From a virus: DNA of 41,559 nucleotides. Location: the IMG/VR virus record IMGVR_UViG_3300045988_027176, positions 1 through 41,559 of that record; one strand, written 5' to 3'. The first letter of the stretch is position 1; every line of letters begins with the position of its first letter. The notes beneath the pieces are model-generated. The model made no database searches, was not told the origin of the DNA, and saw nothing but the letters and a program-made list of their open reading frames with translations. Shown here piece after piece: positions 80 through 41,545 of this stretch. The translations under genes and the position numbers were made by a program.

Positions 80-102
80 AGGGGATGCACTATGCATCCC
101 CT
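80..102. terminator. Perfect 10-bp stem hairpin at the convergent ends of int and the ArdC-like gene
   Basis: aggggatgca-cta-tgcatcccct. The loop is the stop codon of the 90-938 ORF. There is no long U run on either side, so terminator function is only suggested. Confidence 0.4.
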
Positions 103-5289: not shown

Positions 5290-5301
5290 TGCAAATTCTC
5301 C

Positions 5302-5688: not shown

Positions 5689-5697
5689 TTATTTCTC

Positions 5698-6453: not shown

Positions 6454-6953
6454 TTCCATGTCCCTCCTGCTTTGAATTTTGCCAGCGCATTTTTCCATGT
6501 GCCGCCCTTGCGGTACAGCGTCGCCTGCTTCCACGTCCCGCCGACCTTGAAATAAAGCGTCGAGCCGAGCAGCGCTGGGGCGGTAAATGTCGCGGTTTGG
6601 ACGGCGACCGCGGCGTCAACACCGCCGACCTTTACGGTTATCGTTACGCCCTCTCCGGCTTCGCCGACGAAGTAGAATGTGGTCGTTCCTTTGGTTACGC
6701 CGAAGGACGTGTCCTCTGTTCCCGCAACGCCGCCGACATCGCACCGGAGCTTCCAGTTGGACGGCGGGTAATACGTCCCGTAGCTGCCGTTTGTGCTCGT
6801 AAGCTCTGCTTTAACAGCAAACTGCCTGCCATTCAGACGGGCGATGTAGAGCTTTCCGGTAAAGTTCCAGTGGTTTGACCATCCCGAAATGCTCTTTTCC
6901 TGCTCCCAAGCGCTGCCGCTGGGCAGCGTCGGAGCGGTCTTCGACCATGCCAT
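6450..6953 (-). CDS. Tail fibre-associated protein with C-terminal GGTWK repeats
   Basis: 167 aa, ending KVGGTWKQATLYRKGGTWKNALAKFKAGGTWK (three GGTWK units). Follows the tail fibre gene. Confidence 0.5.
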   Translation of the reverse strand: MAWSKTAPTLPSGSAWEQEKSISGWSNHWNFTGKLYIARLNGRQFAVKAELTSTNGSYGTYYPPSNWKLRCDVGGVAGTEDTSFGVTKGTTTFYFVGEAGEGVTITVKVGGVDAAVAVQTATFTAPALLGSTLYFKVGGTWKQATLYRKGGTWKNALAKFKAGGTWK

Positions 6954-18362: not shown

Positions 18363-18515
18363 TTTGAACATATCAAATTCTTCGTAAGTCAGTTCCGTGA
18401 ATTCTTTCCCTGTCTCTCTGCAATATTCTCGAATCCGCTTGAAATTATAGCCCGGCGAGCTGTCGGGAAACGGATCAGTCAGAGCGCCGTAATTGTCAAG
18501 AGGATTCTCCGCCAT
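18351..18515 (-). CDS. Hypothetical small protein (54 aa) overlapping the end of the MuF-GNAT gene
   Basis: My translation: MAENPLDNYGALTDPFPDSSPGYNFKRIREYCRETGKEFTELTYEEFDMFKSIV. Its ATG lies 20 nt inside the upstream gene. No clear Shine-Dalgarno, so expression would depend on coupling. Confidence 0.35.
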   Translation of the reverse strand: MAENPLDNYGALTDPFPDSSPGYNFKRIREYCRETGKEFTELTYEEFDMFKSIV

Positions 18516-20271
18516 AGTATCTGTCATATAGTTTTTTCGCGCTCCTTTCTTCGATGGCCATAATTCTAAGTCTTGGGTTAATGAGCGTTGCGCCGAGCGA
18601 TTCTTGATAATGCTTAATCAAATCCGACTTGGCAGTAAAGTATACATATCCGTCAAAACCTTGTTTGAAGCTCTCCCGAACAGCCTCTGCAAACAAATGG
18701 CCGCCTACACCAGAATACTCCTTACTTAGAAATGCAGGGTTGTGCGGGTTGTTAAACGGAGCAGCTTCGACTATATCAATCTTTACGGCATAATTGTTTG
18801 GATCCGGCTTTAAGGCAATTAAACCCTGTATGCGGTTATCTCCATTCGCTTTAATTCCGCGAATTGTATACCCGTTCTTACGCGGAATCGTCCAGTCAAA
18901 CTCCCAGTCCTTAAAATCGCGTTTTGTTGGAATAACCTCAACGACGGTGGTGTTGACAAATTGTCCGTCATTCATTCTTTTAAGGCAAGGTGTAAGCTCG
19001 TCAACCTCGATTTTAATTATACCATTTTCAGGCTGTTTTGCAATATTTTTTGCAGCTTTCTGCGCTTCCCGTGCTTCTTTCGGCCCGAACTCCGCGATGT
19101 TCCCACGCTCGTATTGTGGCCGCAGTCCTGCCGCCTTACTGAAAGCCTCGTATTCCTCGTTTAGACGACGATACCGTACAGACTTGGTCGTATACTCCTC
19201 ATCGTCTCCGCGTCCTTTAGCAGCTATTAGCTCACGTTTAACTTTACGCAGCGATGCTTCAACCTGCCTCTGCTTTTGTGTCGCTTCGTAAAAGGTGTAT
19301 TGCTTGCCCTCAAACTCAAAAGGCGGCGGGTCGATGTTCTCCAATTCCTCATCGGTGTATGTCCGCTCGGAAACACCCTCGATCCAGATATGGTACATAT
19401 GGCGGCAGTTTGCGCCGCACAAGCCGTCCACCTCGTCAAGGCCGCAGACCTCATAGATGGACGGGTAAATATCGCCGGTACGTACGGAATAAACGCGCCC
19501 CTGCCATTTCTTGTGGCTCGCCCATGGCGTTTTGCCCTCTCCGTCACGCGCTCCGCGGTGCGCCGTAACCTCCCTGTATGGCGTGTCAAGCAACGTCGCC
19601 GTCTGCTCGGTGTACTGCCGGGAAAGCTGGGTAACGCCAGTCATAACGGCTCTGCGGGCAGCAACGTCAACGCGGTTATGCCAGCCGGATTCATAGTCAA
19701 CGTACTGCAAGCCGCTGTCCGTCAGCATCTTCGTTGCGTCACGGATCGCCACGTTATAGCTCTGCCCGCTCTCAACGCGCATCAAGGCATCGTCAAGCAC
19801 GCGCTGGTACATACGGCCTATATCATCGACCTTTACCGTGCCGTCCGGCGCTCGGTACGCAAAGCCCATGCTTCGGGTAATGTTCGTCAGCTCTCCGAGC
19901 GTCTGCATCTCAATGGCGTTGATTTCCTGCATGAACAGGTCGGCATTGAAGTTGTTTTCACCGAGAATGAGGTTGTCGTCGATCAGCGTATCAAAATACT
20001 GCTGATTGCGTTGAACGGCCTTGTTCCATACGGTGTCAAACTCGCTCTGTGTGAGCTTTAGGGTCTTTCGGATATACTCGTTGATTTTTTTGTAATCGTA
20101 TCCCCTCCGCTGCAAAGACCGTATATGCTCTATCGCCGTCTCCGTCATTTCCCCGGTCATGGCAACACGGGAGCATATGTCCTCAAGGATTTGCTCTTCT
20201 AAGCGCTGATATAGCCGCATAAGCGGCAGGGGCAGGGAGTACATGAACTCCGGCGTGATCGGGTATTTCAT
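18496..20271 (-). CDS. Head morphogenesis protein (Mu F / SPP1 gp7 family) fused to a C-terminal GNAT-like acetyltransferase domain
   Basis: 591 aa. MuF signature ...TAHRGARDG...HKKWQGRVYSV...GANCRHMYH. The C-terminal ~170 aa (IQGLIALKP...VKIDIVEAAP...YSGVGGHLFAEAVRESFKQGFDGYVYFTAKSDLIKHYQESLGA) have GNAT-like beta4-alpha3 and beta5-alpha4 patterns, including a G-x-G-G CoA-loop-like motif. Confidence 0.75.
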   Translation of the reverse strand: MKYPITPEFMYSLPLPLMRLYQRLEEQILEDICSRVAMTGEMTETAIEHIRSLQRRGYDYKKINEYIRKTLKLTQSEFDTVWNKAVQRNQQYFDTLIDDNLILGENNFNADLFMQEINAIEMQTLGELTNITRSMGFAYRAPDGTVKVDDIGRMYQRVLDDALMRVESGQSYNVAIRDATKMLTDSGLQYVDYESGWHNRVDVAARRAVMTGVTQLSRQYTEQTATLLDTPYREVTAHRGARDGEGKTPWASHKKWQGRVYSVRTGDIYPSIYEVCGLDEVDGLCGANCRHMYHIWIEGVSERTYTDEELENIDPPPFEFEGKQYTFYEATQKQRQVEASLRKVKRELIAAKGRGDDEEYTTKSVRYRRLNEEYEAFSKAAGLRPQYERGNIAEFGPKEAREAQKAAKNIAKQPENGIIKIEVDELTPCLKRMNDGQFVNTTVVEVIPTKRDFKDWEFDWTIPRKNGYTIRGIKANGDNRIQGLIALKPDPNNYAVKIDIVEAAPFNNPHNPAFLSKEYSGVGGHLFAEAVRESFKQGFDGYVYFTAKSDLIKHYQESLGATLINPRLRIMAIEERSAKKLYDRYYGGESS

Positions 20272-21686: not shown

Positions 21687-22925
21687 TTATGCCTTCACTC
21701 CGTACAATCTGAATACAGGCTCCATCCCATACCGGATAGCGTCTATTGCATGGTTGTTCTTGTCTGGGTATCCGCTGATAATCTCGCCGTCTTTGTTCCG
21801 TTCGTACTCATAGCCGACGATCTCTTTGTATGCGTTCGGCGTCCTGCGTTTGTCAATAACAATTTTTCGACGCTGTAGCCACTTCATACCATACTCGACA
21901 CTTCCCGGGCCTTTTATGGCGTTTCTTGCATCCAGCCCACTTGCCCGCAAGTCTGCGATGCTTTTAGGCTCCGCGCTGTCACATGTGATCGGGAAATCAT
22001 TATAATGGCGGTCGCGGATCCAGACGGCATTGTCTTCGTTACTCGTCTTATTGACGTAATGCTCATCGATCAGATATAACGTTTCTCTGGCAACATCATA
22101 GTATATGCGGATAAAGCAAAACGGATCAGGATACCAGCCAAAGTCGATGCCTTGATAAATCCTGTCAAACCGCTTTACTTCGTCGTCCGTAATTTCCCGA
22201 AGCTCCAACCGCTCAAATACGTTGCCGCCCGTGCCTACAGGCAGACCAAGGTATTCGTGTTGGTACGCTCTTTCATCGGTCTGTTTAAGGTATTCGGCTT
22301 CGTTTATGAACTCCTCGCCGAGCCAGCTCTTAGGCGCATCAAGGTAGGTGCTTATGTGGCACAGTCGGTTCGGCTTGTCTTCAGCACTATCTATATTCGC
22401 CCAATTATCGCGGCTGATAGGCGGGTTGTAGCTCTCGAAATTCCAGAACTTGTCCCCGCCGCGCATTGTTGACTGCAAAATGGTGCGTATCTCCGCCCTG
22501 CCGGAAAACTGATCTTTTTCCTCAAAGTGAGTAACGGCAATGTACCCGAACGGCACCTTGATAGATTTAATCTTCATTGGGTCGTCTGCGCCACGGAACA
22601 TGATCTTTTGCCCGGTCGGGCGGTAGATGATTTCCATCGGACTGACCTTTGCGTACCATAGCCCGGCCATGCCAAGCTCGGAAATCGCCCACATGTACTG
22701 GTTAAACACACTGTCTCGAAGGGTGTTTGCAACCTTACGGAGCACCAGCGCGTGAGTATTTGGATTGGCGATTAACAACTGTGGTACAAGCAGGGATACG
22801 GTTGACGATTTCAGGCTCCCTCGACCGCCGCGAATGTCGTAATGCGTATGACCGTGCCGCATAACGTCTTTCGCAAGGTCATAAAATACAGGGGCAAGCA
22901 TTTCTGACATTTTTATATGTCCCAT
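21687..22925 (-). CDS. terL: Terminase large subunit (PBSX/Terminase_3-like)
   Basis: 412 aa. Walker A-like GGRGSLKSS. C-terminal nuclease motifs (DSAEPKSIADL, HAIDAIRY). Confidence 0.9.
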   Translation of the reverse strand: MGHIKMSEMLAPVFYDLAKDVMRHGHTHYDIRGGRGSLKSSTVSLLVPQLLIANPNTHALVLRKVANTLRDSVFNQYMWAISELGMAGLWYAKVSPMEIIYRPTGQKIMFRGADDPMKIKSIKVPFGYIAVTHFEEKDQFSGRAEIRTILQSTMRGGDKFWNFESYNPPISRDNWANIDSAEDKPNRLCHISTYLDAPKSWLGEEFINEAEYLKQTDERAYQHEYLGLPVGTGGNVFERLELREITDDEVKRFDRIYQGIDFGWYPDPFCFIRIYYDVARETLYLIDEHYVNKTSNEDNAVWIRDRHYNDFPITCDSAEPKSIADLRASGLDARNAIKGPGSVEYGMKWLQRRKIVIDKRRTPNAYKEIVGYEYERNKDGEIISGYPDKNNHAIDAIRYGMEPVFRLYGVKA

Positions 22926-23299
22926 TCAATGATCGCCCCTCTATCAACTTCCGGATCAGGATAGTCTTTCTGTCCGAGAACTTGCTTGCCAAGCCATATC
23001 GCCATTGTTGCATTAGTTTCCGATAGCTTCATCTGGTTACGGCGCAAGCTCACTTTGCCTCTGGCCTGTCCTCTTTTTTTGCAGTCTAAGAATGTTTCTC
23101 GGTTATTCTTGTTATGCAGCGTTTCTACGGTAGTGCCAAGCTCCCCGGCCATTTCTTCATCTGTGCACATGTATTTGGACAGCATCTCGACCAGTTGCTT
23201 ACCCTCGACACTCAAAACAAGGCTCGGTCGGCCTTTTCCGTTGGGCTGCTTATTCAGATATTTGTTAAACGCTCCAAGCTGTTCAGCAGTCTTCGCCAT
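22913..23299 (-). CDS. terS: Terminase small subunit
   Basis: 128 aa. HTH-like region (TDEEMAGELGTTVETLHNK). Overlaps terL by 13 nt. Confidence 0.75.
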   Translation of the reverse strand: MAKTAEQLGAFNKYLNKQPNGKGRPSLVLSVEGKQLVEMLSKYMCTDEEMAGELGTTVETLHNKNNRETFLDCKKRGQARGKVSLRRNQMKLSETNATMAIWLGKQVLGQKDYPDPEVDRGAIIEWDI

Positions 23300-24392
23300 A
23301 TAAGCACCTCGTAGACAACGCGAGAACGCTCTCTATGGTTTCGGACATGTCATAATATCTATAATCACCCAAACGGCCACAAACGATTAGACCGTCCTTT
23401 TCCGCTCTCAATCGGTATTTCTGGTACAGGGCTTCACTCTCTGCGTTATTGACAGAATAAAAAGGTTCTTTCCCTCGTTCCCATGCGTCAGGATATTCGA
23501 TTGTCAGTACTGTTTTCGGGCTTTCTGTGTCAAAAACGAAGTGCTTATGCTCTATAACCCTAGTATGGGGGATTCTGCTCTCGGTGTAATTTACTACAGC
23601 CACACCTTGATAGTTGTCTATATCAACCGTCATCTGGTCAAAACGCAGGCTTCGCCACGGGAGTTCGCCATACTCATATCTGTAAAGCTCATCGAGTGCG
23701 CCAGTATAAACGATCTTCTTTGCCTTATACTTTTCCTTCGCTTCTTCAAAGGACGTATTTAAGGCTACGTCTGTACCGTTTAACAGTGATTCAATGAGTT
23801 TATTATACCCCTCGATAGGGATGCCCTGATATTTCGCATTATAATAGTTATTGTCCGCTGTATACCGAACTGGGATCCGCCGCATTATATCCGGCGGAAG
23901 TTCGGAACAAGACTTGCCCCATTGCTTTTCGGTGTACCCTCGGATAAACATCTTATAGATGTCTTCTCCGACAAGCGACAGCGCGTGTTCTTCTAGATTC
24001 TTCGCTTCGCGATCAAGCACAAGTCTCTGGCGGTTGATCTCCGCTTTCGCCTGAAAAGGGAAATTCACACCCCACAACTGCCGGAATGTGTTCATGTTAA
24101 ACGGGAGGTTGTAGCACCGCCCTGCGTAGCAGGCAAGGGGGCTGTTAATGAAATTATTGAAATGAACGAACTGATTGACGAATTTCCATACCTCGTCATT
24201 GTTCGTGCGGAAAATGTGCGCTCCGTATTTATGAACTGCTATCCCCTCAACATTTTCTTGGTAGCAGTTTCCGCCGATATGGTCGCGCCGATCCACGGCA
24301 ATACAGGACTTCCCAGCCTTTGTCGCCATATACGCAAAAACAGAGCCTGCAAGCCCTGTTCCAACTATTAAGTAATCGTAGTTTTTTTCCAT
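23283..24392 (-). CDS. glf: UDP-galactopyranose mutase
   Basis: Start MEKNYDYLIVGTGLAGS (FAD GxGxxG). Collinear by eye with bacterial Glf (HKYGAHIF, NLPFNMNTF, LVGEDIY..FIRGYTEKQWG, RIPVRYT.DNNYY...YQGIP, IEHKHF, GRLGDYRYYDM). The 35-aa N-terminal extension in the ORF track is rejected. Confidence 0.93.
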   Translation of the reverse strand: MEKNYDYLIVGTGLAGSVFAYMATKAGKSCIAVDRRDHIGGNCYQENVEGIAVHKYGAHIFRTNNDEVWKFVNQFVHFNNFINSPLACYAGRCYNLPFNMNTFRQLWGVNFPFQAKAEINRQRLVLDREAKNLEEHALSLVGEDIYKMFIRGYTEKQWGKSCSELPPDIMRRIPVRYTADNNYYNAKYQGIPIEGYNKLIESLLNGTDVALNTSFEEAKEKYKAKKIVYTGALDELYRYEYGELPWRSLRFDQMTVDIDNYQGVAVVNYTESRIPHTRVIEHKHFVFDTESPKTVLTIEYPDAWERGKEPFYSVNNAESEALYQKYRLRAEKDGLIVCGRLGDYRYYDMSETIESVLALSTRCLYGEDC

Positions 24393-25249
24393 TTTTCGTT
24401 CACCAGCTTCGGGCGGCAGTTGTTCCAACTTATTTTGTGATGGATTCGGAAATTTATTATGCCCTGTTTTGCGATCTTCACGAACGACGGGCAGCACATA
24501 ACACTGTAAAAGCTCTTCCGGTACGTACCGTTGTCCTGATATATGTCCGTCATTCCACCACGCATGTGCTGTGTCGGCGGCGTCTGTACCTGCAAGTACA
24601 TAACAGAATACATCAGCAGCCCCCGGCTTGCTTCGTCTATCGTCGTGGTAATATCGTCATTCATGCGCATACGGAATTTGACTTTTTTATCAGCGCGCAT
24701 CAAGAACGATCCCATAGTTTTCGGGTTAAGCCCCATGAAATACTTTTTTCCACGGATCCCGCCGAGGTATTCGCTCGACAGCGCAAAGGACAGCCATGCA
24801 ATGTCCGTCTTATCGATGTACCGCACAAGGTAATAGAAAAGCGTGTCAAGGTCCCGGCAAGCCTTTGTAACAAGCCTGTCATCCTCTACATATCTGAAAT
24901 CGATCCTCGTAAAATCATCGTCGAGCTGCAAATGATATTTATAGCCACGCTCTTCGGCAAGGTCTTGTATCTTGTTTCTTGCGAACACTCCAACGCGGCG
25001 GTCATTGTCCGTGTCGCCGGTATCCGTCTCATCCGCAACAGCCTTTTTATCAAACTGAATGACATGTTCGCCGAACTTAGAGAAGTATTGATCGGCTTGG
25101 TCGTCCTCATTGTCGATCACAACGTACCAGTCTCCGGTATAGCCGCTGTCTTTCAGCATCTTTACTGTTTTTATCTCGTCAGCTCTGCCGTGGCTTAGAA
25201 TAAAGACAGCGAAAGATTCGCGGTATTCACTCCTCGTCAATGCCCTCAC
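24368..25249 (-). CDS. Putative GT-A fold glycosyltransferase (DxD type), family not recognised
   Basis: 293 aa, GTG start. N-terminal beta-strand motif FAVFILSHGRA, then YVVIDNEDD, and a DxD-like motif HLQLDDDF. Overlaps the ParB-like gene by 23 nt and glf by 25 nt. Confidence 0.5.
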   Translation of the reverse strand: MRALTRSEYRESFAVFILSHGRADEIKTVKMLKDSGYTGDWYVVIDNEDDQADQYFSKFGEHVIQFDKKAVADETDTGDTDNDRRVGVFARNKIQDLAEERGYKYHLQLDDDFTRIDFRYVEDDRLVTKACRDLDTLFYYLVRYIDKTDIAWLSFALSSEYLGGIRGKKYFMGLNPKTMGSFLMRADKKVKFRMRMNDDITTTIDEASRGLLMYSVMYLQVQTPPTQHMRGGMTDIYQDNGTYRKSFYSVMCCPSFVKIAKQGIINFRIHHKISWNNCRPKLVNEKWKKTTIT

Positions 25250-25961
25250 CGTCCTTTAACTCTACCAAACCATCAAGCAGCTCTGCAAACCCATTAGCAA
25301 TGGCATTATCGATATCGACGATGACAAGTGCGGAACGCTCCATCAGTTCCTGCATTTCAGGGCTTGCACAGTTCGCATAGTATTCCGCAATATTCCTGTA
25401 ATTGAACACATTATGCCGGTTTGCCGCTGCAGTAAGGAACGCTTTCTGCTCAGGAAGGATGTCTGCGGCCTCAATCTCCATGATGAGGCTGTCCGTCTTA
25501 TCCGTATTGTACAAGTCGGCAAGGCTCGGCTTTATCCCGTCCGGCTCATACTGCGGAATATTGACTTTCATGCTGTACTGGTTAGGCTCGCTCTCTTTTT
25601 CTTCCTCAAAAAATCCGAAGTCAAAGCCCTCAAAATCCAGCTCCGCAAGTTCTTCCGATAAAAGCGCATCATCCCATTCGGCAAACTCATTCGTTTTGTT
25701 GTCCAGCAGACGATACTTCCGTTTCTGCTCCTTCGTCAGACCCTCTTTGATAAGAACATCCGCTTCTTTATAGCCGAGCTTTTTCAATGCCTTATATCTC
25801 GTATGCCCGGCAAGGATCACGCCGTCCTCATCCACAATGATAGGCGCAACGTAGGTGCACTGCTTGATGCTCTCCATGACATAAGCGACAGCATCATCAT
25901 TCTTTCTGGGATTCTTTTCATAAGGGACGATTTCCCTTAACAGCTTTTTGACAAGCTCCAT
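25227..25961 (-). CDS. ParB N-terminal (ParB/Srx nuclease-like) domain protein without a methyltransferase domain
   Basis: 244 aa. IVPYEKNPRKN...SIKQCTYVAPIIVDEDGVILAGHTRYKALKKLG is the ParB-N signature. The following linker (...FLTAAANRHNVFNYRNIAEYYA...) resembles the region that precedes the MTase domain in phage ParB-methyltransferase fusions, as far as I recall. Confidence 0.75.
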   Translation of the reverse strand: MELVKKLLREIVPYEKNPRKNDDAVAYVMESIKQCTYVAPIIVDEDGVILAGHTRYKALKKLGYKEADVLIKEGLTKEQKRKYRLLDNKTNEFAEWDDALLSEELAELDFEGFDFGFFEEEKESEPNQYSMKVNIPQYEPDGIKPSLADLYNTDKTDSLIMEIEAADILPEQKAFLTAAANRHNVFNYRNIAEYYANCASPEMQELMERSALVIVDIDNAIANGFAELLDGLVELKDGEGIDEE

Positions 25962-25987: not shown

Positions 25988-26017
25988 CAAAAAAGAGCCG
26001 GAATCGCTTCCAGCTCT
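25988..26017 (-). terminator. Strong rho-independent terminator immediately upstream of the ParB-like gene and late operon
   Basis: On the minus strand: AGAGCUGGAA-gcga-UUCCGGCUCU (10 bp, one G-U pair) followed by UUUUUUG. The RBS and ATG of the ParB-like gene follow within 27 nt. Confidence 0.75.
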
Positions 26018-26030
26018 TTCGAGTGTACCC

Positions 26031-26040
26031 ATTATAGCAC
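26031..26040 (-). promoter_or_regulatory. Extended -10 promoter-like element (TGcTATAAT) about 14 nt upstream of the terminator stem
   Basis: The minus strand reads gTGcTATAATgggtacactcgaa and then the terminator hairpin. There is no good -35. Confidence 0.35.
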
Positions 26041-27937: not shown

Positions 27938-28585
27938 TCATGCCTCCCACGAAACGCTTAGCTTTGCCATGCTCACGGATCCGAGGACGGAGTAAACGAG
28001 GTTCAGCGCTTCTGTGGTCGTGGTGTTCTCGAAGCAGAGGCTTCCGCTCTTTGGAGTGCCCCCCCTATTCTGTACCGGCGGAGCGTCAGGAGCTTTGACC
28101 TCCTCCGGCGGTTCAGCAACTTCCGGCGTGGAATGCACCGGTTCCGGCGGCGCTTCTACATGATCGGCTTTCGGCTCCTCGGAGCAAAAGGCACGGAACC
28201 CGCCGTTGTTGGTATTCGCCCATCCTCCACGGTGCGGAAACTTGATGCCGAGCTTCTTAGTCTCCAAGCCTACAGAATTAATAGAAACACCAAACATCGC
28301 AGCGAGGTCTTTCTGCATCACGCCGAAGCGTTTTTGTAGGTTCTCTATGTACTCCCGGCGCACATCATCCGGGAGCAGTTTAAATTCTTTCCACCGCATA
28401 GGGCGGTTGAGCGCGTAGGTCTTTACTTCGCCGTTCATCGCTTCTCGTTCCTTTCTTGTTAGGTAGTCGGACGGGAAGAGGACTTTCCCGCCCTTACCGG
28501 TGTGGGTGCGCTTATTGTGGATGCCCCGCGCCGTTCGCTTCTTCTCTGCGCAGTCAGTAATGAAAACGTACTTTTCATCGTTCAC
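27938..28585 (-). CDS. Putative DNA-binding protein with a central HTH and a Pro/Glu-rich linker
   Basis: 215 aa. QKDLAAMFGVSINSVGLETKKLG is HTH-like. Confidence 0.4.
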   Translation of the reverse strand: MNDEKYVFITDCAEKKRTARGIHNKRTHTGKGGKVLFPSDYLTRKEREAMNGEVKTYALNRPMRWKEFKLLPDDVRREYIENLQKRFGVMQKDLAAMFGVSINSVGLETKKLGIKFPHRGGWANTNNGGFRAFCSEEPKADHVEAPPEPVHSTPEVAEPPEEVKAPDAPPVQNRGGTPKSGSLCFENTTTTEALNLVYSVLGSVSMAKLSVSWEA

Positions 28586-31905: not shown

Positions 31906-32336
31906 CCGAGCCTCCGCTTGGCGTAGAGTGCCATGAGTAAAGATTCCGCCATTCCGTCATGCTCCTTGCGGCAGCCCGGCGGAATCAAATTCACGCCGGG
32001 GAAAAGCCGCTTGCAGACCTCTATGGACGTGTTCTTGTCCGCCGTGACGGAAAATTCCTTCTTCCACTTCTGAGGGCGGACGAGCTCATACGGTATCTCG
32101 TATGCTTCCAGCATCCCTTGCAGCCACCCGAAGCCCTCGCCGAAGTGGAACATAGAGGTCACTCCCTGCCCCGGCATGGCGCTGACGTGCTCTAAGCAGC
32201 ACACCGCCTTTTCCCCGCGAAGATCGGATAGGCCGCAGCGGTAGGTGTCTCGGTCGTACCGGAACGTCTGGACTTCCTCACCCTGCAGAATGGCGAGGCC
32301 GCCGTTCTTGCCGGGGTCTATGCCGATGTAGATCAT
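31902..32336 (-). CDS. RuvC-like Holliday junction resolvase
   Basis: MIYIGIDPGKNGGLAIL is the catalytic-Asp opening motif of phage and Gram-positive RuvC-like resolvases. 144 aa. Confidence 0.7.
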   Translation of the reverse strand: MIYIGIDPGKNGGLAILQGEEVQTFRYDRDTYRCGLSDLRGEKAVCCLEHVSAMPGQGVTSMFHFGEGFGWLQGMLEAYEIPYELVRPQKWKKEFSVTADKNTSIEVCKRLFPGVNLIPPGCRKEHDGMAESLLMALYAKRRLG

Positions 32337-33424
32337 TCTTCCGCCTCTACGATCTCGCCGTTGCGGAGAGTGTAAAATACATCCGCCTTGATGATCTCAC
32401 CATCCACCTGGTACGACTTAACGCAGATGCAAGGGTATCCATCGCCGTCCCATTCGCCGTACTCGGCGAGAGTACACCATGTACCAACGGGAGCCTTGAT
32501 CTTCCCGCGCTTGCCGATAGCCGCCGCGACGCCGTGGACATTCTCGATCACAATTCTTGCGTCATCGCCGGAACTGCCGATCTGCGCGTATCTGCCGGAA
32601 CTGCCGATCTGCGCGTATCTGCCGGAACTGCCGATCTTCGCGTCATCGCCGGAACTGCCGATCTTCGCGTATCTGCCGGAACTGCCGATCTTCGCGTCAT
32701 CGCCGGAACTGCCGATCTGCGCGTATCTGCCGGAACTGCCGATCTTCGCGTCATCGCCGGAACTGCCGATCTGCGCGTATCTGCCGGAACTGCCGATCTG
32801 CGCGGCATCGCCGGAACTGCCGATCTGCGCGGCATCGCCGGAACTGCCGATCTGCGCGGAATCGCCGGAACTGCCGATCTTCGCGTCATCGCCGGAACTG
32901 CCGATCTGCGCGGCATAGCCGGAACTGCCGATCTTCGCGGCATCGCCGGAACTGCCGATCTTCGCGTATCTGCCGGAACTGCCGATCTGCGCGTATCTGC
33001 CGGAACTGCCGATCTGCGCGGCATCGCCGGAACTGCCGATCTGCGCGGCATCGGAAACGTCAACGTCCTCCGGCTTCGGCATTTTCTTAATCGTTTTCTC
33101 AAAAAGAAAATCAACGCACGCCTGAATAAAGCCGGAAAAGCCAAGCTTTGCGCCGATTTTAATCGTGCTGGTTGCGAATTTCTTGTCGTCATCCGTTACC
33201 GGAGGATAGATGGCTTCCACGGTTGTAAAGTCGCTGAACTGTCCGTCCGGTCGGACAAGCGGGTAATGGTCTAAAACGTCGAACGGATTAACACAGTAGT
33301 GTGTTACGCCCGGAACGCAGATGCCGTGACCGGATTTTTTGTAAACCGTGTTCTCTTCGTATTTGTGTCCACGGCAGATCAAGCCGGGTTCATAGGCTTT
33401 AAAGCCGTGCATATTATCGCTCAT
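32333..33424 (-). CDS. DUF7666-like protein with 18 tandem nonapeptide repeats
   Basis: The N-terminus FKAYEPGLICRGHKYEENTVY...GVTHYCVNPFDVLDHYP resembles, from memory, the DUF7666 family. The centre is 18 units of x-x-A-(Q/K)-I-G-S-S-G. Confidence 0.6.
   Translation of the reverse strand: MSDNMHGFKAYEPGLICRGHKYEENTVYKKSGHGICVPGVTHYCVNPFDVLDHYPLVRPDGQFSDFTTVEAIYPPVTDDDKKFATSTIKIGAKLGFSGFIQACVDFLFEKTIKKMPKPEDVDVSDAAQIGSSGDAAQIGSSGRYAQIGSSGRYAKIGSSGDAAKIGSSGYAAQIGSSGDDAKIGSSGDSAQIGSSGDAAQIGSSGDAAQIGSSGRYAQIGSSGDDAKIGSSGRYAQIGSSGDDAKIGSSGRYAKIGSSGDDAKIGSSGRYAQIGSSGRYAQIGSSGDDARIVIENVHGVAAAIGKRGKIKAPVGTWCTLAEYGEWDGDGYPCICVKSYQVDGEIIKADVFYTLRNGEIVEAEE
32567..33052. repeat. 27-bp tandem repeat x18 (coding)
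   Basis: The unit gccggaactgccgatct(g/t)cgcg plus a 5-nt variable tail (tatct, tcatc, gcatc, gaatc, gcata) repeats 18 times with an exact 27-nt period (32567 + 17 x 27 = 33026). Confidence 0.95.
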
Positions 33425-37869: not shown

Positions 37870-38190
37870 ATGGCGTTTTACCAACAGTTTATTAAGTTAT
37901 GTAATACCACCGGAATATCGCCATCCCGCGCAGCATTAAACGCCGGACTTTCTAAAACATCTGTAAATGGATGGAAAAGAGGGCAAACGCCAACCGACAA
38001 GAACATTGCGAAACTCGCAGAGGTGTTTAATGTTCCTGTTTCCTACTTTGACGAAAAAGAAGAAAAGCTCCCTGTCGATACCGACAAAGAGCTTTCCCCT
38101 AAGTATTCTGATTGGCAAATTTTAGCCGCCTACGAAAAGGCGGACGACAATGTTAAGGAAGCAATCCTGCTTCTTCTAAAATTAAGGTGA
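37870..38190 (+). CDS. CI-like XRE-family repressor
   Basis: 106 aa. ISPSRAALNAGLSKTSVNGWKRGQTPTDKNIAKLAEVFNVPVSYF is an XRE HTH with a C-terminal extension. Divergent from the Cro-like gene. Confidence 0.8.
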   Translation: MAFYQQFIKLCNTTGISPSRAALNAGLSKTSVNGWKRGQTPTDKNIAKLAEVFNVPVSYFDEKEEKLPVDTDKELSPKYSDWQILAAYEKADDNVKEAILLLLKLR

Positions 38191-38459: not shown

Positions 38460-39491
38460 ATGGAATACATTCCGCACTTCCGATATGGGCGCGCATATAA
38501 ACTTGTCCCGCCTCCGCCAAATTCGTTGTACGAAGATCGAGAGCTCATAAATTATGCAGAGAAAATCGTATGCGACGGCAAAATGTACGATCTGGCAAGC
38601 GTTGAATCAATCTATTCGATTCCTATTCCAGATTACGGGAAAATGCACATAGGCTCTATCGAAAGTCCCGTTTTTTACCTTGAGTACGTTCTCCGTATGC
38701 ACGCAAGCTATCTCTGGAAAAAGAAGGAATACCGGTTAGCTCTTGTTTGTCTGGGGAAGTCTACACAGATGATGCCGTTTTCGCCAATTGGATACCTTAA
38801 AGAAACCTACTACCGTATTGTCGATTGGGAAGAAGAACTTGGTAAATTTCAAAAAGCGGAAGAATGGGAACAATGGATAGAAGATAATGCGCCAAGCATC
38901 GAACAAGACGTTTTTACTAATGTATTGAAAGGTTGCAGGGAACTGCACACAGATCTTGTTTATTCGGCTTGGGCGGGTGCGCAAAGCGCAGTAACAGCAA
39001 AATATCAAGGGAGAGTTTACAGCATTTCAGGAAAAGACAAGCGATTCCCTACGCTGCCTGATTTTATGAAAGGGCCGCAGAACATTTGCTATTTGTCCGG
39101 CCCTTTTACATGTTGGGGAGACAAAAGCCTTGATACGATCTATTACAAAGGGAAAGACGCAAACGCCATTTCAGTAAGTTGGAGACCGTTTAAGGACGAT
39201 AGATCGCCGCAAGAAATTGCCGGATATAAAAACACGATTGAGAAAATCATGCAGCCCAAAATATCTCGGTACAAGATGCGTGTATACTTCCGAATTAAGT
39301 ATTATTTTCCTGAAAAGCTGCCTAAAACAAAATCGGCGATTTATCGCCTTTCGGAAGAAGAATTTGAAAATCTAATTTCTGCCGCGGAGTGCGCCGGTGT
39401 CCAACTTCCGGAAAAACCCGTTTACAAAGAACCGATAGACCCAGAGCCAGATTATAACGGCGGACACCGTAAACCATTTTTCGTTTTCTGA
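38460..39491 (+). CDS. Lysogeny-module cargo protein, 343 aa, function unknown
   Basis: Clean ORF on the lysogeny strand between the repressor and the integrase. Visibly AT-richer than the phage backbone. A hairpin follows it. Residues ~170-215 carry a short MuF-like motif (SAWAGAQSAVTAKYQGRVYSI). Confidence 0.6.
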   Translation: MEYIPHFRYGRAYKLVPPPPNSLYEDRELINYAEKIVCDGKMYDLASVESIYSIPIPDYGKMHIGSIESPVFYLEYVLRMHASYLWKKKEYRLALVCLGKSTQMMPFSPIGYLKETYYRIVDWEEELGKFQKAEEWEQWIEDNAPSIEQDVFTNVLKGCRELHTDLVYSAWAGAQSAVTAKYQGRVYSISGKDKRFPTLPDFMKGPQNICYLSGPFTCWGDKSLDTIYYKGKDANAISVSWRPFKDDRSPQEIAGYKNTIEKIMQPKISRYKMRVYFRIKYYFPEKLPKTKSAIYRLSEEEFENLISAAECAGVQLPEKPVYKEPIDPEPDYNGGHRKPFFVF

Positions 39492-39500
39492 TTTAAGATC

Positions 39501-39532
39501 GCCCCGGCGTTGGCGGCAACCTCTGCCGGGGC
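39501..39532 (+). terminator. Terminator-like GC hairpin after the 343-aa gene
   Basis: gccccggc-16 nt-gccggggc. Only a short tt follows. Confidence 0.4.
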
Positions 39533-39689
39533 TTCGGGTAAGGTGGTAAACCGACACGTCTGCCACATCTCAAGCGTACCCGCTCTTGCCCATAAAGTCC
39601 ATGTTGTAAATCACAAATCAGGAGGAAGATTCAAGAACCGTTCCCAAAACTTTCGGGAAATCCAACAACTGAATGGAGATGGAGAAAAA

Positions 39690-40250
39690 GTGTCCGCGCT
39701 CACAGACCTACAACCTTACTTAGACGAGTATCCAGCCAAACTTCGCAAAGCGAAAAATGCCAGCGGCTTCACCCTGCAAGAGTTGTCAGACCTTTCAGGC
39801 GTTCCTTATAACAACGTATGCGACACAAATGCAGGGCGGGTCAAGCACCCGCTCCTTTTTTATGCCGCTGCCACTTGCAAGGTATTGAATCTATCGCTGA
39901 ATGAGCTTGTCGGTCTGGATGAACAGCCGGACACACAGCATGTCCATGATCTGGAATTAGAGAACGTGCGGTTATCCGGCGAAGTAAAGCATCTGCAAGA
40001 AATGAACGCAGGGCTGAGAAAGCAGGGGGAAACCCACACAAGGACAATTTATATGCTTATAGGCGTATGCAGTATTCTTTTGTGCGCCGTTGTATGGTAC
40101 GTCATATTTGACATCAAGGTAGAGACCGCCGGTATTTTCCGCTCGGCTGGGACAAGCATTTTTGCGGGCGTCCTCGCCCTGATACTGAACGCCTCCGTCG
40201 CAACCATCATTTACGCCTTCAAAAGCATTTACAAGGGGAAAAAGAAATGA
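39690..40250 (+). CDS. Membrane-anchored XRE-family HTH protein
   Basis: I place the start at GTG 39690 (RBS ggagatggag). HTH FTLQELSDLSGVPYNNVCDTNAG, a coiled-coil-like segment, and two C-terminal TM helices (IYMLIGVCSILLCAVVWYVIF and IFAGVLALILNASVATIIYAF). ATGA overlap with the integrase start. Confidence 0.6.
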   Translation: MSALTDLQPYLDEYPAKLRKAKNASGFTLQELSDLSGVPYNNVCDTNAGRVKHPLLFYAAATCKVLNLSLNELVGLDEQPDTQHVHDLELENVRLSGEVKHLQEMNAGLRKQGETHTRTIYMLIGVCSILLCAVVWYVIFDIKVETAGIFRSAGTSIFAGVLALILNASVATIIYAFKSIYKGKKK

Positions 40251-41545
40251 GAGTTGCACTTTATGTCCGCGTCTCCACGGAAGAACAAGCCGTTCACGGC
40301 CTTTCCGTCGATGACCAGAAGGACAGCCTGAAAAGATGGGCGGAGGAAAACAAGCACAAGGTCGTTGATTATTACGTCGATGCCGGGGTAAGCGGCAGGA
40401 AAAGCGTGTCAAAGCGCCCTGAATTGCAGCGGCTTCTGTCCGACGTGGAAGCGGGGAAAATCGATCTCGTAGCGTTCACAAAGCTCGACCGGTGGTTCCG
40501 AAACATCGGGGAATTTTATAAGGCGCAGGAAGTCCTCGACGCGCACGGCGTTGTCTGGCAAGCGACATACGAGGATTATGAGACCGCCACAGCCGCCGGA
40601 CGGTTAAAGGTCAATATAATGCTGTCCGTCGCGCAGGACGAGGCAGACAGAACGTCAGAGCGTGTTAAACGGATCATGCAGCACAAGCGGGAGCTTGGCC
40701 TTTGCCCCGCGGGTAAAACGCCCATCGGGTTAAAGGCCGTCGAGAGCCGCCTTTGCATCGATGAGGAAACGGCGCACATTGCTAGGCGAATGTTTGAAGA
40801 TTACATCGCAACGGGAAGCGTTAACCACGTCAAAAAGATGCTCGTTTCCGAATTTGGAATAATGCGAGCGAATCATCATATAAAAGGCGCATTGAGCAAC
40901 GAGAGATATATCGGCCTTAACAACGGAATAAAAGTCTGCGACGCGCTGATCCCGCCGGAGGATTTTGCCCTTGTACAACGGATGCTGACGGCAAGAAGCA
41001 TTCGCAACAACGGATCAAAGCATACTTGGCTTTTCTCCGGCCTTGTCTGGTGCGCCGAATGCGGCCATCGTCTTGTGACGCATTCAACACGGCAACGTGG
41101 GACAGACTACTTCTATTACCGCTGCAAAAACTATGAAATTGGCATCTGCCGCCACAAAAAGAGAATCAACGAGGCGACGCTTGAAAAATATCTGCTTGCC
41201 AAGCTGCCAATCGAGGTACAGGCGCACAATGCAAAGCTCAAAGCAGGAAAAACAAAGCCGCCGGTTGATACGGCGGCGATCAAGCGGAAAATGGACAAAC
41301 TGACAGACCTTTACCTCGCTGATCTCATAAGCCGCGAGAAATACGAAATAGAATACACAGCATTAAAAGAAAAACTGAACGTACCGCCAGAGCCGAAGCC
41401 TATCAACGAAGAACTTGTCATGTCTCTATTGGACGCATATGACAAACTTCCGCCACGTGGAAAAAAGGAAGTGTGGAATCGCTTCATTCGCCGGATTGTA
41501 GTTTCAGAAAACGGCGACATCTTTTTTGAACTTGTTTGGCTATAA
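40247..41545 (+). CDS. int: Large serine recombinase (integrase)
   Basis: 432 aa. The N-terminal resolvase domain opens MRVALYVRVSTEEQ (catalytic Ser). Then a recombinase domain, a zinc ribbon CAECGH...YYRCKNYEIGICRH, and a C-terminal coiled coil. Confidence 0.93.
   Translation: MRVALYVRVSTEEQAVHGLSVDDQKDSLKRWAEENKHKVVDYYVDAGVSGRKSVSKRPELQRLLSDVEAGKIDLVAFTKLDRWFRNIGEFYKAQEVLDAHGVVWQATYEDYETATAAGRLKVNIMLSVAQDEADRTSERVKRIMQHKRELGLCPAGKTPIGLKAVESRLCIDEETAHIARRMFEDYIATGSVNHVKKMLVSEFGIMRANHHIKGALSNERYIGLNNGIKVCDALIPPEDFALVQRMLTARSIRNNGSKHTWLFSGLVWCAECGHRLVTHSTRQRGTDYFYYRCKNYEIGICRHKKRINEATLEKYLLAKLPIEVQAHNAKLKAGKTKPPVDTAAIKRKMDKLTDLYLADLISREKYEIEYTALKEKLNVPPEPKPINEELVMSLLDAYDKLPPRGKKEVWNRFIRRIVVSENGDIFFELVWL

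Follow-up and report, generated by a model that had tools for sequence, protein, structure and literature searches.

Gene order at the head of the late operon

The window analysed here, i.e. the whole stretch of 41,559 nucleotides, represents a 41-kb temperate siphovirus of gut Clostridia in which a cassette of three genes opens the DNA-packaging operon. That the host is a Gram-positive member of the Clostridia is indicated by a GH25 and CW_7 lysin and by prophage relatives in Clostridia and Lachnospiraceae. The five open reading frames of the block are all carried by the minus strand, at the positions given in the original prediction:

25989..26039, minus strand: leader of the late operon, with a -10-like element, a hairpin and a T6 run
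25227..25961, minus strand: ParB-like partner protein, 244 aa (phrog_620, ParB_N)
24368..25249, minus strand: TAGT-family GT-A glycosyltransferase (GT), 293 aa (PF20691, phrog_842), predicted to use UDP-galactofuranose
23283..24392, minus strand: Glf, UDP-galactopyranose mutase, 369 aa from the ATG (PF03275, TIGR00031)
22913..23299, minus strand: terS, small terminase subunit, 128 aa (phrog_309, 1e-4; position; 13-nt overlap with terL)
21687..22925, minus strand: terL, large terminase subunit, 412 aa (Terminase_3, 8.4e-35; Terminase_3C, 2.8e-16)
23170..25278, no strand: segment without DNA similarity to the sister phage L051 in the blastn HSP map, covering TAGT, Glf and the 5' end of terS

Recomputed from the coordinates, the successive overlaps amount to 23 nt (ParB-GT), 25 nt (GT-Glf), 17 nt (Glf-terS) and 13 nt (terS-terL), in exact agreement with those first reported. 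The GT starts with a GTG preceded by AAAGGA, and the ATG of Glf comes after GGAGAAAGGAAA, the mechanical reading frame reaching further, to a GTG at 24497. Upstream of the block, the leader contains an extended -10-like element (TG at 26039-26038 and TATAAT at 26036-26031), then a hairpin at 26016-25995 followed by the T6 run at 25994-25989, the ParB start codon lying 25-30 nt further on. Folding gives the hairpin -18.9 kcal/mol (z = -4.78), a stability equalled by none of 200 shuffled sequences. A generic promoter scan gave a result not above chance; read from the sequence, the -10-like element may nonetheless be the promoter of the late operon, and the whole leader is identical in L051. These data support the view that ParB, TAGT and Glf form one co-translated block with terS and terL at the head of the late operon, in line with the earlier proposal that they are made with the packaging machinery. 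The start of the late operon is a place where phages keep orphan DNA-modification genes.

The three proteins of the cassette

The glycosyltransferase, previously assigned to no recognised family, is a clear member of the TAGT (TET-associated glycosyltransferase) family PF20691, the family of the T6 second DNA glucosyltransferase (5.5e-35, 121.6 bits for a cutoff of 27.5), and also matches phrog_842 (3.3e-63). The GT-A hallmarks noticed at the outset, FAVFILSHGRA and LQLDDDF, are present; the DDD motif at residues 110-112 and the RIHH motif at 268-271 are invariant, D110-D112 being so in 49 homologues, and the AF2 model (pLDDT 89.3, pTM 0.88) displays a GT-A fold. The top matches of this model in BFVD are TAGT-domain phage proteins (TM 0.86), and a T-even-type beta-glucosyl-HMC-alpha-glucosyltransferase of the same database is matched at TM 0.61; the best match in the PDB reaches a TM of 0.53 only, and the remote structural matches include TarS and a fungal Galf-transferase. 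The protein is soluble and has no transmembrane segment (maximum 19-residue hydropathy 1.05). It is basic, its pI of 8.66 being close to the TAGT median of 8.75 (84 sequences).

Known members of the TAGT family include the T6-type enzyme, which glucosylates glucosyl-5hmC in DNA (PMC13390438), and GTs of phage TET clusters (PMC8256090). The T2/T6 beta-glucosyl-HMC-alpha-glucosyltransferase shares with the window protein its Pfam and PHROG families and its fold, and is a soluble, DNA-acting TAGT, but it extends glucose on 5hmC made before replication, uses UDP-glucose, has no ParB partner and is encoded in the nucleotide-metabolism region of a lytic myovirus (PMC13390438). The catalytic domains of the eukaryotic TAGT relatives JGT (base J) and GREB1 are related GT-A domains in which the catalytic residues are conserved; JGT, however, needs 5hmU made by JBP, GREB1 acts on a protein, and neither has a ParB partner or a furanose donor (PMC7968844).

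The neighbouring Glf is a bona fide UDP-galactopyranose mutase, as originally called: it matches PF03275 (4.8e-71) and NAD_binding_8 (4e-19), and passes the TIGR00031 equivalog with 359.7 bits for a cutoff of 303.75. No other GT was found among the scanned window ORFs, and the adjacent TAGT is supported as the sole plausible consumer of the Glf product.

The ParB-like protein begins with a ParB/Srx-type nucleotide-binding N-domain (NBD, about residues 1-105) that contains the motifs PYEKNPRKN and GHTR. A disordered, acidic linker (119-135) leads to the C-terminal domain (CTD, about 146-210), which is helical. Only the N-terminal 100 or so residues of its AF2 model superpose on the CTPase domains of ParB, Noc and KorB (rmsd 1.9 A over 92 residues). 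Residues 1-123 match phrog_498, which groups ParB-methyltransferase fusions (1e-34), so that the resemblance of N-domain and linker to these fusions stands. The idea of a fusion that has lost its methyltransferase does not, since this is a full-length NBD and helical-CTD protein of a TAGT-paired family (phrog_620, 2.5e-53). The match to ParB_N (3.3e-5) is below Pfam's cutoff. Among the invariant motifs derived from 38 homologues, a Tyr-containing one, Y129...NIPQY138E.xG, lies at the linker. With a pI of 4.46, the protein resembles the other ParB partners, which are strongly acidic (pI 4.05-5.2).

That DNA-modifying enzymes have ParB-fold proteins as partners is established. A subclass of phage thymine (T-) dioxygenases needs a ParB on dsDNA, with cognate specificity, and these ParBs require both NBD and CTD and have no DNA-binding domain either (PMC13229309); the NBD-linker-CTD architecture of the window ParB is theirs. 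ParB-methyltransferase fusions are also common in phages (PMC12704722). ParB-like genes ahead of terminases are often annotated as nucleases.

Recurrence and exchange of the cassette

Across 87 related loci, whose TAGT is 35-98% identical to the window protein, the ParB-like gene adjoins the TAGT in 86, the single exception being cut by a contig end. The two reading frames frequently overlap, and when three ParB homologues were picked arbitrarily, each had a TAGT directly after it. The hosts are Firmicutes, Bacteroidota, Proteobacteria and Actinobacteria, haloarchaeal viruses carrying the pair too, and about 29% of complete E. coli genomes contain it as ynaK and its neighbour. The pair is almost always located just ahead of terS/terL, as is likewise the case in a Porphyromonas phage at 25% identity. 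ParB and TAGT thus behave as an obligate gene pair.

This pairing bears on two other readings. According to the first, to which we grant very little probability, the cassette acts on another nucleic-acid or small-molecule target (for example host tRNA or RNA, or a defence signalling nucleotide), or the ParB has nothing to do with the GT, being a packaging nuclease or a partition protein that merely adjoins it. The nuclease annotations and the functional versatility of ParB/Srx folds, which bind CTP, ATP or GTP (PMC12704722), are compatible with it; nothing, however, points to RNA, and partition is contradicted by the failure of the partition-ParB model TIGR00180 (26.6 bits for 58.45 required) and by the lack of ParA and of an HTH DNA-binding domain. 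Mere neighbourhood would explain neither the near-universal adjacency with its overlapping frames nor the joint exchange of the ParB CTD and the GT described below. The second, which is the least probable of all and was already among the initial hypotheses, assumes that a host envelope polysaccharide or teichoic acid containing Galf is modified late, in the manner of seroconversion or receptor masking. Gram-positive wall polysaccharides commonly contain Galf, and both the clostridial host and the TarS and fungal Galf-transferase matches would fit. Against it, the TAGT is a soluble protein devoid of transmembrane or amphipathic anchor, belongs to no wall-glycan GT family and is encoded in the late operon, not in the lysogeny module; besides, the obligate ParB partner would be left unexplained, and the same pair occurs in phages of diderm bacteria and in haloarchaeal viruses.

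In 17 loci, Glf directly follows the TAGT, and it does so in no other clade than the one at least 57% identical to the window protein. Because the ParB-TAGT-Glf-terS order recurs in these 17 loci, from about six distinct phage lineages, it is more than a chance arrangement. In the other TAGT clades, the next gene codes for an NDP-sugar epimerase/dehydratase, a radical SAM enzyme or a second TAGT. The coupling of TAGT to a sugar-nucleotide enzyme is thus clade-specific, and, since clades track the downstream gene, this slot seems to provide the donor sugar or to tailor it. Rhizobium phage RL38J1 offers a proposed precedent for Glf working with DNA GTs (PMC13326640).

Comparison with L051, based on blastn HSPs, DNA and ParB protein alignments and gene order, shows that the cassette is exchanged as a unit. 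The DNA of the two phages is nearly identical across the leader and the ParB N-domain, diverges from about codon 105 of ParB, and becomes similar again at window position 23170, L051 carrying instead a TAGT-TAGT-radical SAM set. The exchange therefore comprises the ParB CTD, TAGT, Glf and the 5' end of terS, whose first 43 or so codons lie in the exchanged segment and whose product is 67% identical to its L051 counterpart; TerL is 98% identical. Being co-exchanged with the GT, the CTD travels with it, as would be expected of a cognate interaction surface. Hence, of the original suggestion of an AT-rich, swapped-in module, the swap is borne out and the compositional argument is weak: the GC content of the cassette (0.47, compared to 0.52 for the window) is that of terS (0.473) and of the 2 kb upstream (0.458).

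L051 is otherwise 91-95% identical to the window phage, the structural genes, including that of the capsid Ig-like tail, being in that range. This is relevant to protein O-glycosylation, the main rival and a rather unlikely one in our estimation, in which the TAGT would place galactofuranose on Ser, Thr or Tyr of a simultaneously made protein with ParB as substrate adaptor. Candidates are a virion protein, TerS, the portal, a host DNA-bound or defence protein, or ParB itself, through its invariant Tyr-containing linker motif. In favour of this reading, mycobacteriophages are known to glycosylate their virions with GTs of their own, the cassette is expressed together with structural genes, and proteins always offer hydroxyls, while no hydroxylated base is available. 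In addition, the TAGT-related GREB1 O-GlcNAcylates a protein (PMC7968844), and the nearest solved structures are protein- or glycan-directed GT-A enzymes, yet with TM values of at most 0.53. The Ig-like tail, initially cited in favour of virion glycosylation, loses this value, being identical in L051 with its different GT cassette; more generally, the structural genes of the two phages are conserved where their GT cassettes differ, and pair-bearing phages are unrelated, archaeal viruses included, with different capsids, terminases and hosts. If the acceptor were a capsid or tail protein, there would be no reason for a strict ParB/CTPase-fold partnership. The module is found ahead of terS, in the DNA-modification hot spot and away from capsid and tail genes, and DNA is the target of the characterised viral TAGT members.

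Acceptor and possible role

Of the initial hypotheses, galactofuranose on DNA stays the best supported after the profile and structure comparisons placed the GT in the TAGT family of DNA glycosyltransferases. We accordingly favour, at about even chances, a ParB-assisted, post-replicative galactofuranosylation of the phage DNA. Glf would convert host UDP-galactopyranose into UDP-galactofuranose, the TAGT enzyme would move the furanose onto newly replicated phage DNA, and the ParB-like protein would be an obligatory partner which, on double-stranded DNA, activates the transferase or puts it in position, by analogy with the ParB of the phage thymine dioxygenases. Translational chaining to terS/terL would place the modification of the DNA during packaging or immediately ahead of it. 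One point that speaks against DNA as acceptor is that the ParB partner is acidic and has no DNA-binding domain, its DNA contact being putative.

All TAGT-clade enzymes characterised so far, to our knowledge, O-glycosylate a hydroxyl that is already there (on 5hmC, 5hmU, a sugar or Ser/Thr); in canonical DNA such hydroxyls occur at the termini only. In agreement with the first reading, which saw no hydroxymethylase, no TET/JBP, C5-methyltransferase or ThyA-like hydroxylase was found in the window, in the neighbourhoods (25 of 72 Pfam families listed in the bulk scan) or in phage c5, whose complete genome measures 31.8 kb. A canonical base or another non-hydroxymethyl acceptor, implying new chemistry, is tentatively put forward as one form of the DNA reading. 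The other, a still less probable sub-case, is the classical two-step hypermodification, where 5hmU or 5hmC would come from a dioxygenase or ThyA-like enzyme too divergent to be recognised, encoded beyond the window or supplied by the host. TAGT are defined through their association with TET/JBP, and several window ORFs have no family (215 aa, 27938-28585; 343 aa, 38460-39491; 246 aa, 39510-40250); these, however, look regulatory, membrane-associated or part of the lysogeny module on the other strand. On 5mYOX contigs, GTs (31%), ParBs (27%) and terminases (19%) are found as companions, and the Pfam model misses 5mYOX-like sequences by the thousand (PMC13229309), which, like the listing of 25 of 72 families in the neighbour scan, leaves room for such an enzyme. 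Conversely, no acceptor-making candidate is conserved beside the pair across the 87 loci (25 of 72 neighbour Pfam families listed), the c5 genome has no unassigned ORF above 208 aa, and TET_JBP is missing from the precomputed Pfam lists of seven further contigs. Against the DNA reading as a whole, the authors of a large GT survey judged contigs that have a GT but neither 5mYOX nor ThyS 'less likely' to act on DNA (10.1101/2023.12.21.572611).

Among known systems, the phage TET/5mYOX-GT clusters resemble the proposed galactofuranosylation of DNA by their post-replicative action on the DNA polymer, their GT-A GTs including TAGT, their frequent ParB/terminase linkage and their accessory sugar-nucleotide enzymes (Burke et al. 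2021, PMC8256090; Pyle et al. 2023, bioRxiv 10.1101/2023.12.21.572611). They differ in encoding a C5-methyltransferase and/or 5mYOX that makes the hydroxymethyl acceptor, none of which was found in the window or its relatives, and in their reported sugars (hexose, HexNAc, heptose), which are not galactofuranose. The ParB-dependent thymine dioxygenases likewise combine an orphan NBD and CTD ParB, devoid of DNA-binding domain, with an adjacent DNA-modifying enzyme near the terminase, and specificity resides in the pair, as the co-exchange of ParB CTD and GT suggests here; their partner, however, is an Fe/2OG dioxygenase instead of a glycosyltransferase, and the likeness between ParB176 and the window ParB is at the level of the shared fold (O'Toole et al. 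2026, PMC13229309). In the galactosylated 5-hydroxycytosine pathway of RL38J1/Pootjesviridae, a phage Glf is also proposed to feed DNA GTs, but RL38J1 is a lytic myovirus of large size, has a ThyA-like 5hodCMP synthase as acceptor source and carries several non-adjacent GTs (Lee et al. 2026, PMC13326640), whereas here a three-gene cassette, with no acceptor-making enzyme found, is located in a 41-kb temperate siphovirus. Finally, phage fusions of ParB with N6/N4 DNA methyltransferases share the N-domain subtype (NPR...GHTR) and the pre-terminase niche, but have a fused catalytic domain and transfer methyl groups, while the window ParB is separate, with its own helical CTD and a GT partner (phrog_498; PMC12704722).

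The cassette may serve an anti-restriction purpose. Against a modification of the DNA, we know of no report of restriction-resistant DNA in the cultured pair-bearing phages (L. delbrueckii c5, LL-Ku and phi jlb1). If the phage DNA is indeed galactofuranosylated, the modified DNA would be shielded from the restriction-type defences of the next host.

The packaging operon and its surroundings

Five open reading frames follow one another on the minus strand of the window (21687-25961), and their coordinates give overlaps of 23, 25, 17 and 13 nt at the successive ParB/GT, GT/Glf, Glf/terS and terS/terL junctions, in agreement with the original prediction. Downstream of terL come an SPP1-type portal and then minor capsid protein 2.

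Features of the window to which the text refers
25961-25227, minus strand: ParB-like protein, 244 aa
25249-24368, minus strand: TAGT glycosyltransferase (GT), 293 aa
24392-23283, minus strand: Glf, predicted UDP-galactopyranose mutase, from an ATG behind a GGAGAAAGGAAA ribosome-binding site
23299-22913, minus strand: terS, terminase small subunit
22925-21687, minus strand: terL, terminase large subunit, with a Terminase_3/3C match in Pfam
37870-38190: HTH repressor-type gene
40247-41545: serine recombinase

A highly stable hairpin with a T-run lies 25 nt 5' of the ParB start codon (-18.9 kcal/mol and z = -4.8 upon folding), and is itself preceded by a TGcTATAAT extended -10-like element that may act as a promoter. 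Given this leader upstream of ParB, the three cassette genes therefore appear to head the late/packaging transcription unit. A generic promoter/terminator scan of the window performed at chance (9 against 8.2 and 11 against 7.9, respectively) and failed to pick up the hairpin of the leader.

The window belongs to a temperate siphovirus whose host is Gram-positive. Besides the serine recombinase and the HTH repressor-type gene, it encodes a Sak annealase, SSB, HNH, a resolvase, an ASCH protein and a DUF6291 replication protein, its lysin combines GH25 with CW_7, and prophage relatives of the GT are found in MAGs of Clostridia and Lachnospiraceae. Several other genes deserve mention in their own right. 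At the far end of the prophage, an ArdC-type anti-restriction-like gene (90-938, minus strand, 282 aa) combines an ArdC N-terminal domain (3e-24) with a zincin-like metallopeptidase domain (MPTase-PolyVal, 1.3e-34). Two plus-strand ORFs (38460-39491, 343 aa; 39510-40250, 246 aa), flanked by the HTH repressor-type gene and the serine recombinase, occupy the part of the window with the lowest GC content (0.43) and match no Pfam or PHROGs family; the second has a sub-threshold NCBIfam RstR match (0.0033), an HTH-like look and a hydrophobic C-terminal segment, and both are probably lysogeny-expressed cargo. A 363-aa protein (32333-33424, minus strand) with DUF7666 and collagen triple-helix repeats is encoded among early/replication genes and not among tail genes. 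Finally, in minor capsid protein 2 (18496-20271, minus strand), Phage_min_cap2 (aa 6-377) is followed by a C-terminal extension of about 210 aa without Pfam match; the homologue in the relative locus L004 has an Ntox50 toxin domain at that position, and in E. coli relatives an ADP-ribosyltransferase is encoded in the corresponding place, which suggests that the extension is a variable, possibly injected effector domain.

The TAGT glycosyltransferase and its ParB partner

The 293-aa glycosyltransferase had been regarded as an orphan, yet it scores 121.6 bits on the TAGT profile PF20691, for which the cutoff is 27.5 (E = 5.5e-35), its residues 13-229 covering profile positions 1-202 out of 205, and it also matches phrog_842 (3e-63); PF20691 is carried by all 120 homologues among the matches listed. 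This family, which was reportedly defined by Iyer et al. 2013, owes its name to a genomic association with TET/JBP dioxygenases, i.e. 5-methylpyrimidine dioxygenases (5mYOX). The AlphaFold2 model built with 49 homologues (pLDDT 89.3, pTM 0.88) has a GT-A fold, whose best BFVD matches are TAGT-domain phage proteins (TM 0.86) and which aligns with the T-even 'beta-glucosyl-HMC-alpha-glucosyl-transferase' at a TM of 0.61 among predicted viral structures. By sequence and modelled fold, the protein is thus assigned to TAGT; the eponymous TET context, a contextual and not a sequence characteristic, is lacking around it. Residues D110-D111-D112, corresponding to the DxD metal/nucleotide-sugar motif, and the RIHH motif at 268-271 are invariant. 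A sequence search of the PDB returned noise only and an exact-sequence look-up matched no record, while the top structural matches in the PDB are GT-A enzymes that are all remote (best TM 0.53), so that the acceptor could not be inferred by homology. Among characterised relatives, the T6-type second DNA glucosyltransferase is a TAGT member (PMC13390438), the TAGT-like GTs of phage TET clusters act on 5hmC (PMC8256090), and the eukaryotic relative GREB1 glycosylates a protein (PMC7968844).

A role of the GT in modifying an envelope glycan, which the original prediction had listed as a third option, appears highly improbable. In Pfam and NCBIfam, the GT has no match other than TAGT and hence none to a wall-glycan GT family of the GtrB or TarS type, its model resembles TarS only remotely (TM 0.41), and the protein is soluble and basic, with a maximum 19-aa hydropathy of 1.05, hence no TM segment and no sign of membrane association. 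Besides, its gene is chained to terS and terL in the packaging operon and does not belong to the lysogeny module. An enzyme of the seroconversion type was discarded on the same grounds. Targets other than DNA, proteins or envelope glycans are also poorly supported and only marginally less improbable.

With tblastn, the GT was found in 36 cultured phage records, including L. delbrueckii and L. gasseri phages, lambdoid E. coli and Salmonella phages, the Nocardia phage NTR1, the haloarchaeal virus HHTV-2 and Porphyromonas phages. A search of the 4.3-kb region by megablast, covering 50,697 phage records, returned no cultured close relative. In the five non-jumbo phage records whose annotation was inspected, a ParB-like gene stands directly upstream of the GT and terS/terL come after it (5/5). 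The same holds on a larger scale for ParB, since in a set of 87 loci (80 IMG/VR loci of 591 relatives, plus 7 others) a ParB-like gene adjoins TAGT in 86, the sole exception starting at a contig edge. Conversely, TAGT genes come directly after three out of three arbitrarily chosen ParB homologues (52-56% identity). Judged from gene order, ParB and TAGT form an obligate pair. In E. coli, the pair consists of ynaK and a neighbouring 'hypothetical protein' in lambdoid/Rac-like prophages, the GT being unannotated in RefSeq; among 5426 complete genomes, 1580 carry it, and in 889 of these it is covered to at least 80%.

Minimal ParB-TAGT pair in lambdoid/Rac-like prophages
L002 (relative locus), 5226-6942: ParB-TAGT pair
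NZ_CP033378.1, 2597963-2599679: example of the same pair in an E. coli genome

No relevant functional literature was found on ynaK/ydaY or on HHTV-2 modification, and no paper was found that treats the ParB-TAGT pair as a unit.

The ParB-like partner had been proposed to be a ParB-methyltransferase fusion that lost its methyltransferase. This view has to be abandoned, as the protein is full length relative to phrog_620 and has a conserved C-terminal domain (CTD) of its own. In the AlphaFold2 model, residues 1-105 superpose on the CTPase N-domains (NBD) of ParB, Noc and KorB (rmsd of 1.9 A over 92 residues), after which come a disordered, acidic linker and a helical C-domain that is modelled with confidence. 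The family is acidic throughout, with a pI of 4.05-5.2. A chromosome or plasmid partition ParB was considered and rejected: the score against the partition model TIGR00180 (26.6 bits) is below the cutoff of 58.45, no HTH region aligns in the model and no ParA-like gene is present among the scanned window ORFs. A closer parallel comes from phage T-dioxygenases, one subclass of which needs a ParB activator for dsDNA, and in which ParB/5mYOX pairs show cognate specificity (PMC13229309). Like the 5mYOX-associated activator ParB of O'Toole et al. 2026 (e.g. ParB176), the window protein is modelled with a CTPase-fold NBD and a C-terminal domain devoid of HTH; unlike it, ParBs of the window type adjoin a TAGT (86/87 loci), with no dioxygenase found.

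Accessory enzymes and exchange of the cassette

The identification of Glf proved sound. The protein passes the equivalog model TIGR00031 (359.7 bits against a cutoff of 303.75), matches PF03275 (4.8e-71) and NAD_binding_8 (4e-19), and has the FAD-binding Rossmann motif DYLIVGTGLAG, making it unambiguously a UDP-galactopyranose mutase as far as prediction goes. No second glycosyltransferase is present among the scanned window ORFs. Glf directly follows TAGT in 17 loci from about six lineages, which are exactly the loci whose TAGT is at least 57% identical to the window protein, none being found in more distant ones. In other clades, the slot after TAGT is filled by a radical SAM enzyme of about 320 aa (18 loci), by an enzyme of the NDP-sugar 4,6-dehydratase/4-epimerase family (6-7 loci), by a second tandem TAGT, or by nothing before terS. 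In a neighbour-joining tree of the TAGTs, the Glf-linked members form one clade, the radical-SAM-linked members another, and the epimerase-linked members two small clades. TAGT clades match accessory genes, and donor specificity and accessory enzyme therefore co-vary. The slot after TAGT thereby appears to supply the donor sugar, and this co-variation is the strongest available argument for a use of UDP-galactofuranose (UDP-Galf) by the window TAGT.

Two further observations concern these cassettes. In two loci, e.g. L041:3287-4129, the gene adjoining the pair encodes a PA0069/Rv2578c-family radical SAM enzyme (7e-28); we take this family to be related to DNA repair enzymes of the spore-photoproduct-lyase type acting on thymine methyl groups, in which case some cassettes might use it to activate thymine by a radical route. 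Truncation of the first TAGT (122-157 aa, compared to 277 aa in L106 and L108) is frequent in cassettes of the ParB-TAGT-TAGT-radical SAM type, and could reflect pseudogenisation, the switching on and off of one glycosylation step, or an error of assembly.

Truncated first TAGT in relative loci from otherwise near-identical contigs
L104, 4737-5207: truncated first TAGT
L105, 4737-5210: truncated first TAGT
L107, 4737-5105: truncated first TAGT

The IMG/VR contig L051, from a sister phage, offers a direct view of cassette exchange. Its TerL is 98% identical to that of the window, DNA identity over the structural genes amounts to 91-95%, and the two phages hardly differ in the leader, in the ParB N-domain and in the gene preceding ParB. 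Divergence starts from about ParB codon 105, no DNA similarity is left between 25278 and 23170, and similarity resumes inside terS. Where the window has ParB-CTD, TAGT and Glf, L051 has a different ParB-CTD, two TAGTs and a radical SAM enzyme. The cassette has been swapped as a unit relative to L051, and the idea of a swapped-in module was therefore right, although the AT-richness first invoked for it does not hold: the GC content of the cassette is 0.47, compared to 0.473 for terS and 0.458 for the upstream 2 kb. The breakpoint lies inside ParB, so that the C-domain moves together with its GT, which would fit a role of this domain as the cognate interaction surface for the GT. By analogy, such co-exchange would mirror the cognate specificity of ParB/5mYOX pairs.

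At the other end, the first ~43 codons of TerS lie inside the exchanged segment, similarity resuming at 23170, and TerS is 67% identical between the two phages whereas TerL reaches 98%. The N-terminal part of TerS usually binds DNA, and this part thus co-varies with the glycosylation cassette, which may reflect a recombination boundary only or the recognition of differently modified DNA.

Acceptor and target of the predicted glycosylation

According to the current view, phage DNA is glycosylated in two steps, a hydroxylated pyrimidine being made first and a sugar added afterwards. Essentially every window ORF of at least 100 aa outside the tail region, together with the small ORFs upstream of ParB, was scanned against Pfam and/or PHROGs, and contained no homologue of a TET/JBP dioxygenase, a C5-methyltransferase or a thymidylate synthase; the earlier impression that no hydroxymethylase is encoded is borne out for these ORFs. 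A pre-replicative pathway of the ThyA type, as in T-even phages, RB69 and RL38J1, was rejected since none of them matches a thymidylate-synthase family. Similarly, TET_JBP is absent from the ten most recurrent unidentified neighbours of the pair, scanned directly, and from the precomputed Pfam lists of seven related contigs; it is also absent among the Pfam matches listed for 102 neighbour-gene representatives (25 of 72 families), from which a weak match could escape. The complete phage c5 (31.8 kb, cos), in which the first two genes behind the cos site encode ParB (ORF1) and TAGT (ORF2), contains no plausible dioxygenase candidate and no unassigned ORF above 208 aa. No enzyme making 5hmC, 5hmU or 5hoC was thus found in the window, the recurrent neighbours, the Pfam lists of the seven contigs or c5, and the minimal conserved unit is therefore ParB plus TAGT. 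We infer that this unit would draw its UDP-sugars from the host, except where an accessory enzyme has joined it.

Taken together, these data lead to a model, evenly poised between right and wrong, in which the cassette is a late, post-replicative DNA glycosylation module. Glf would make UDP-Galf, TAGT would transfer Galf to phage DNA, ParB would license or position TAGT on dsDNA, and the DNA would be modified while being packaged. By analogy, the cassette would work like phage 5mYOX-GT clusters and ParB-dependent T-dioxygenases, and would be set apart from partition ParBs, seroconversion GTs and the ThyA-type pathway. This proposal is based on the family identity of the GT, on its obligate ParB-fold partner and the known role of ParB with other DNA-modifying enzymes, on the genomic niche, on the arms-race-like glycodiversification, on the basic and soluble character of the GT, and on the precedent of Rhizobium phage RL38J1, for which a Glf feeding DNA GTs has been proposed (PMC13326640). 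Surveys report that ParB and GTs co-occur with 5mYOX (PMC13229309; 10.1101/2023.12.21.572611). Nevertheless, GT contigs devoid of 5mYOX or ThyS were judged less likely to act on DNA (10.1101/2023.12.21.572611), and the lack of a hydroxyl acceptor, the acidic ParB without DNA-binding domain and the existence of a protein-directed relative, GREB1, all speak against DNA as the target.

All characterised members of the TAGT clade O-glycosylate an existing hydroxyl. Within the DNA glycosylation model, an acceptor other than a hydroxymethylpyrimidine, and hence new chemistry, is a tentative possibility, and a base hydroxylated by an unrecognised hydroxylase is an unlikely one. Slightly more doubtful than the former is the specific idea that ParB and TAGT are self-sufficient, the sugar (here Galf) being placed directly on a canonical base or another non-hydroxymethyl position of dsDNA, with the ParB-fold NTPase giving access or activation.

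The main rival, protein O-glycosylation, would account for the absent hydroxylase and be in line with the activity of GREB1, but we consider it rather improbable, as it leaves unexplained both the universal ParB partnership in phages with unrelated structural proteins and the cassette swap on a constant structural background. The Ig-like tail of the capsid protein, put forward as a candidate substrate, does not provide specific evidence for it, since it lies in a region with 95.4% identity to a phage whose GT cassette differs; from its Thr/Ser/Ala/Val-rich sequence, it is read as an ordinary Ig-like decoration. Should proteins nonetheless be the target, a widespread ParB-guided protein glycosylation system would stand at the heart of phage packaging.

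The ParB-TAGT family keeps the sugar-adding half of DNA glycosylation and a ParB partner, but of the hydroxylating half there is no trace. DNA as the target would mean that the acceptor chemistry is new, or else that an entire class of base hydroxylases has so far escaped recognition; in either case, the licensing of DNA-modifying enzymes by ParB-fold proteins would be general and extend past dioxygenases and methyltransferases. A canonical base as acceptor would be categorically new. The variety of accessory genes by clade and the exchange of cassettes between near-identical phages point to diversifying selection on the glycan, such as would result from an arms race with modification-dependent and modification-blocked nucleases, and a furanose on DNA, if true, would offer a new handle for enzymatic DNA labelling. 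The cassette matters because the ParB-TAGT pair is extremely widespread, uncharacterised and amenable to reconstitution in E. coli followed by nucleoside LC-MS; since the minimal pair is found in prophages of E. coli, the question lends itself to direct testing. If ParB and TAGT are self-sufficient, a new DNA-modification chemistry would be present in thousands of bacterial and archaeal phages and in about one in four E. coli genomes.
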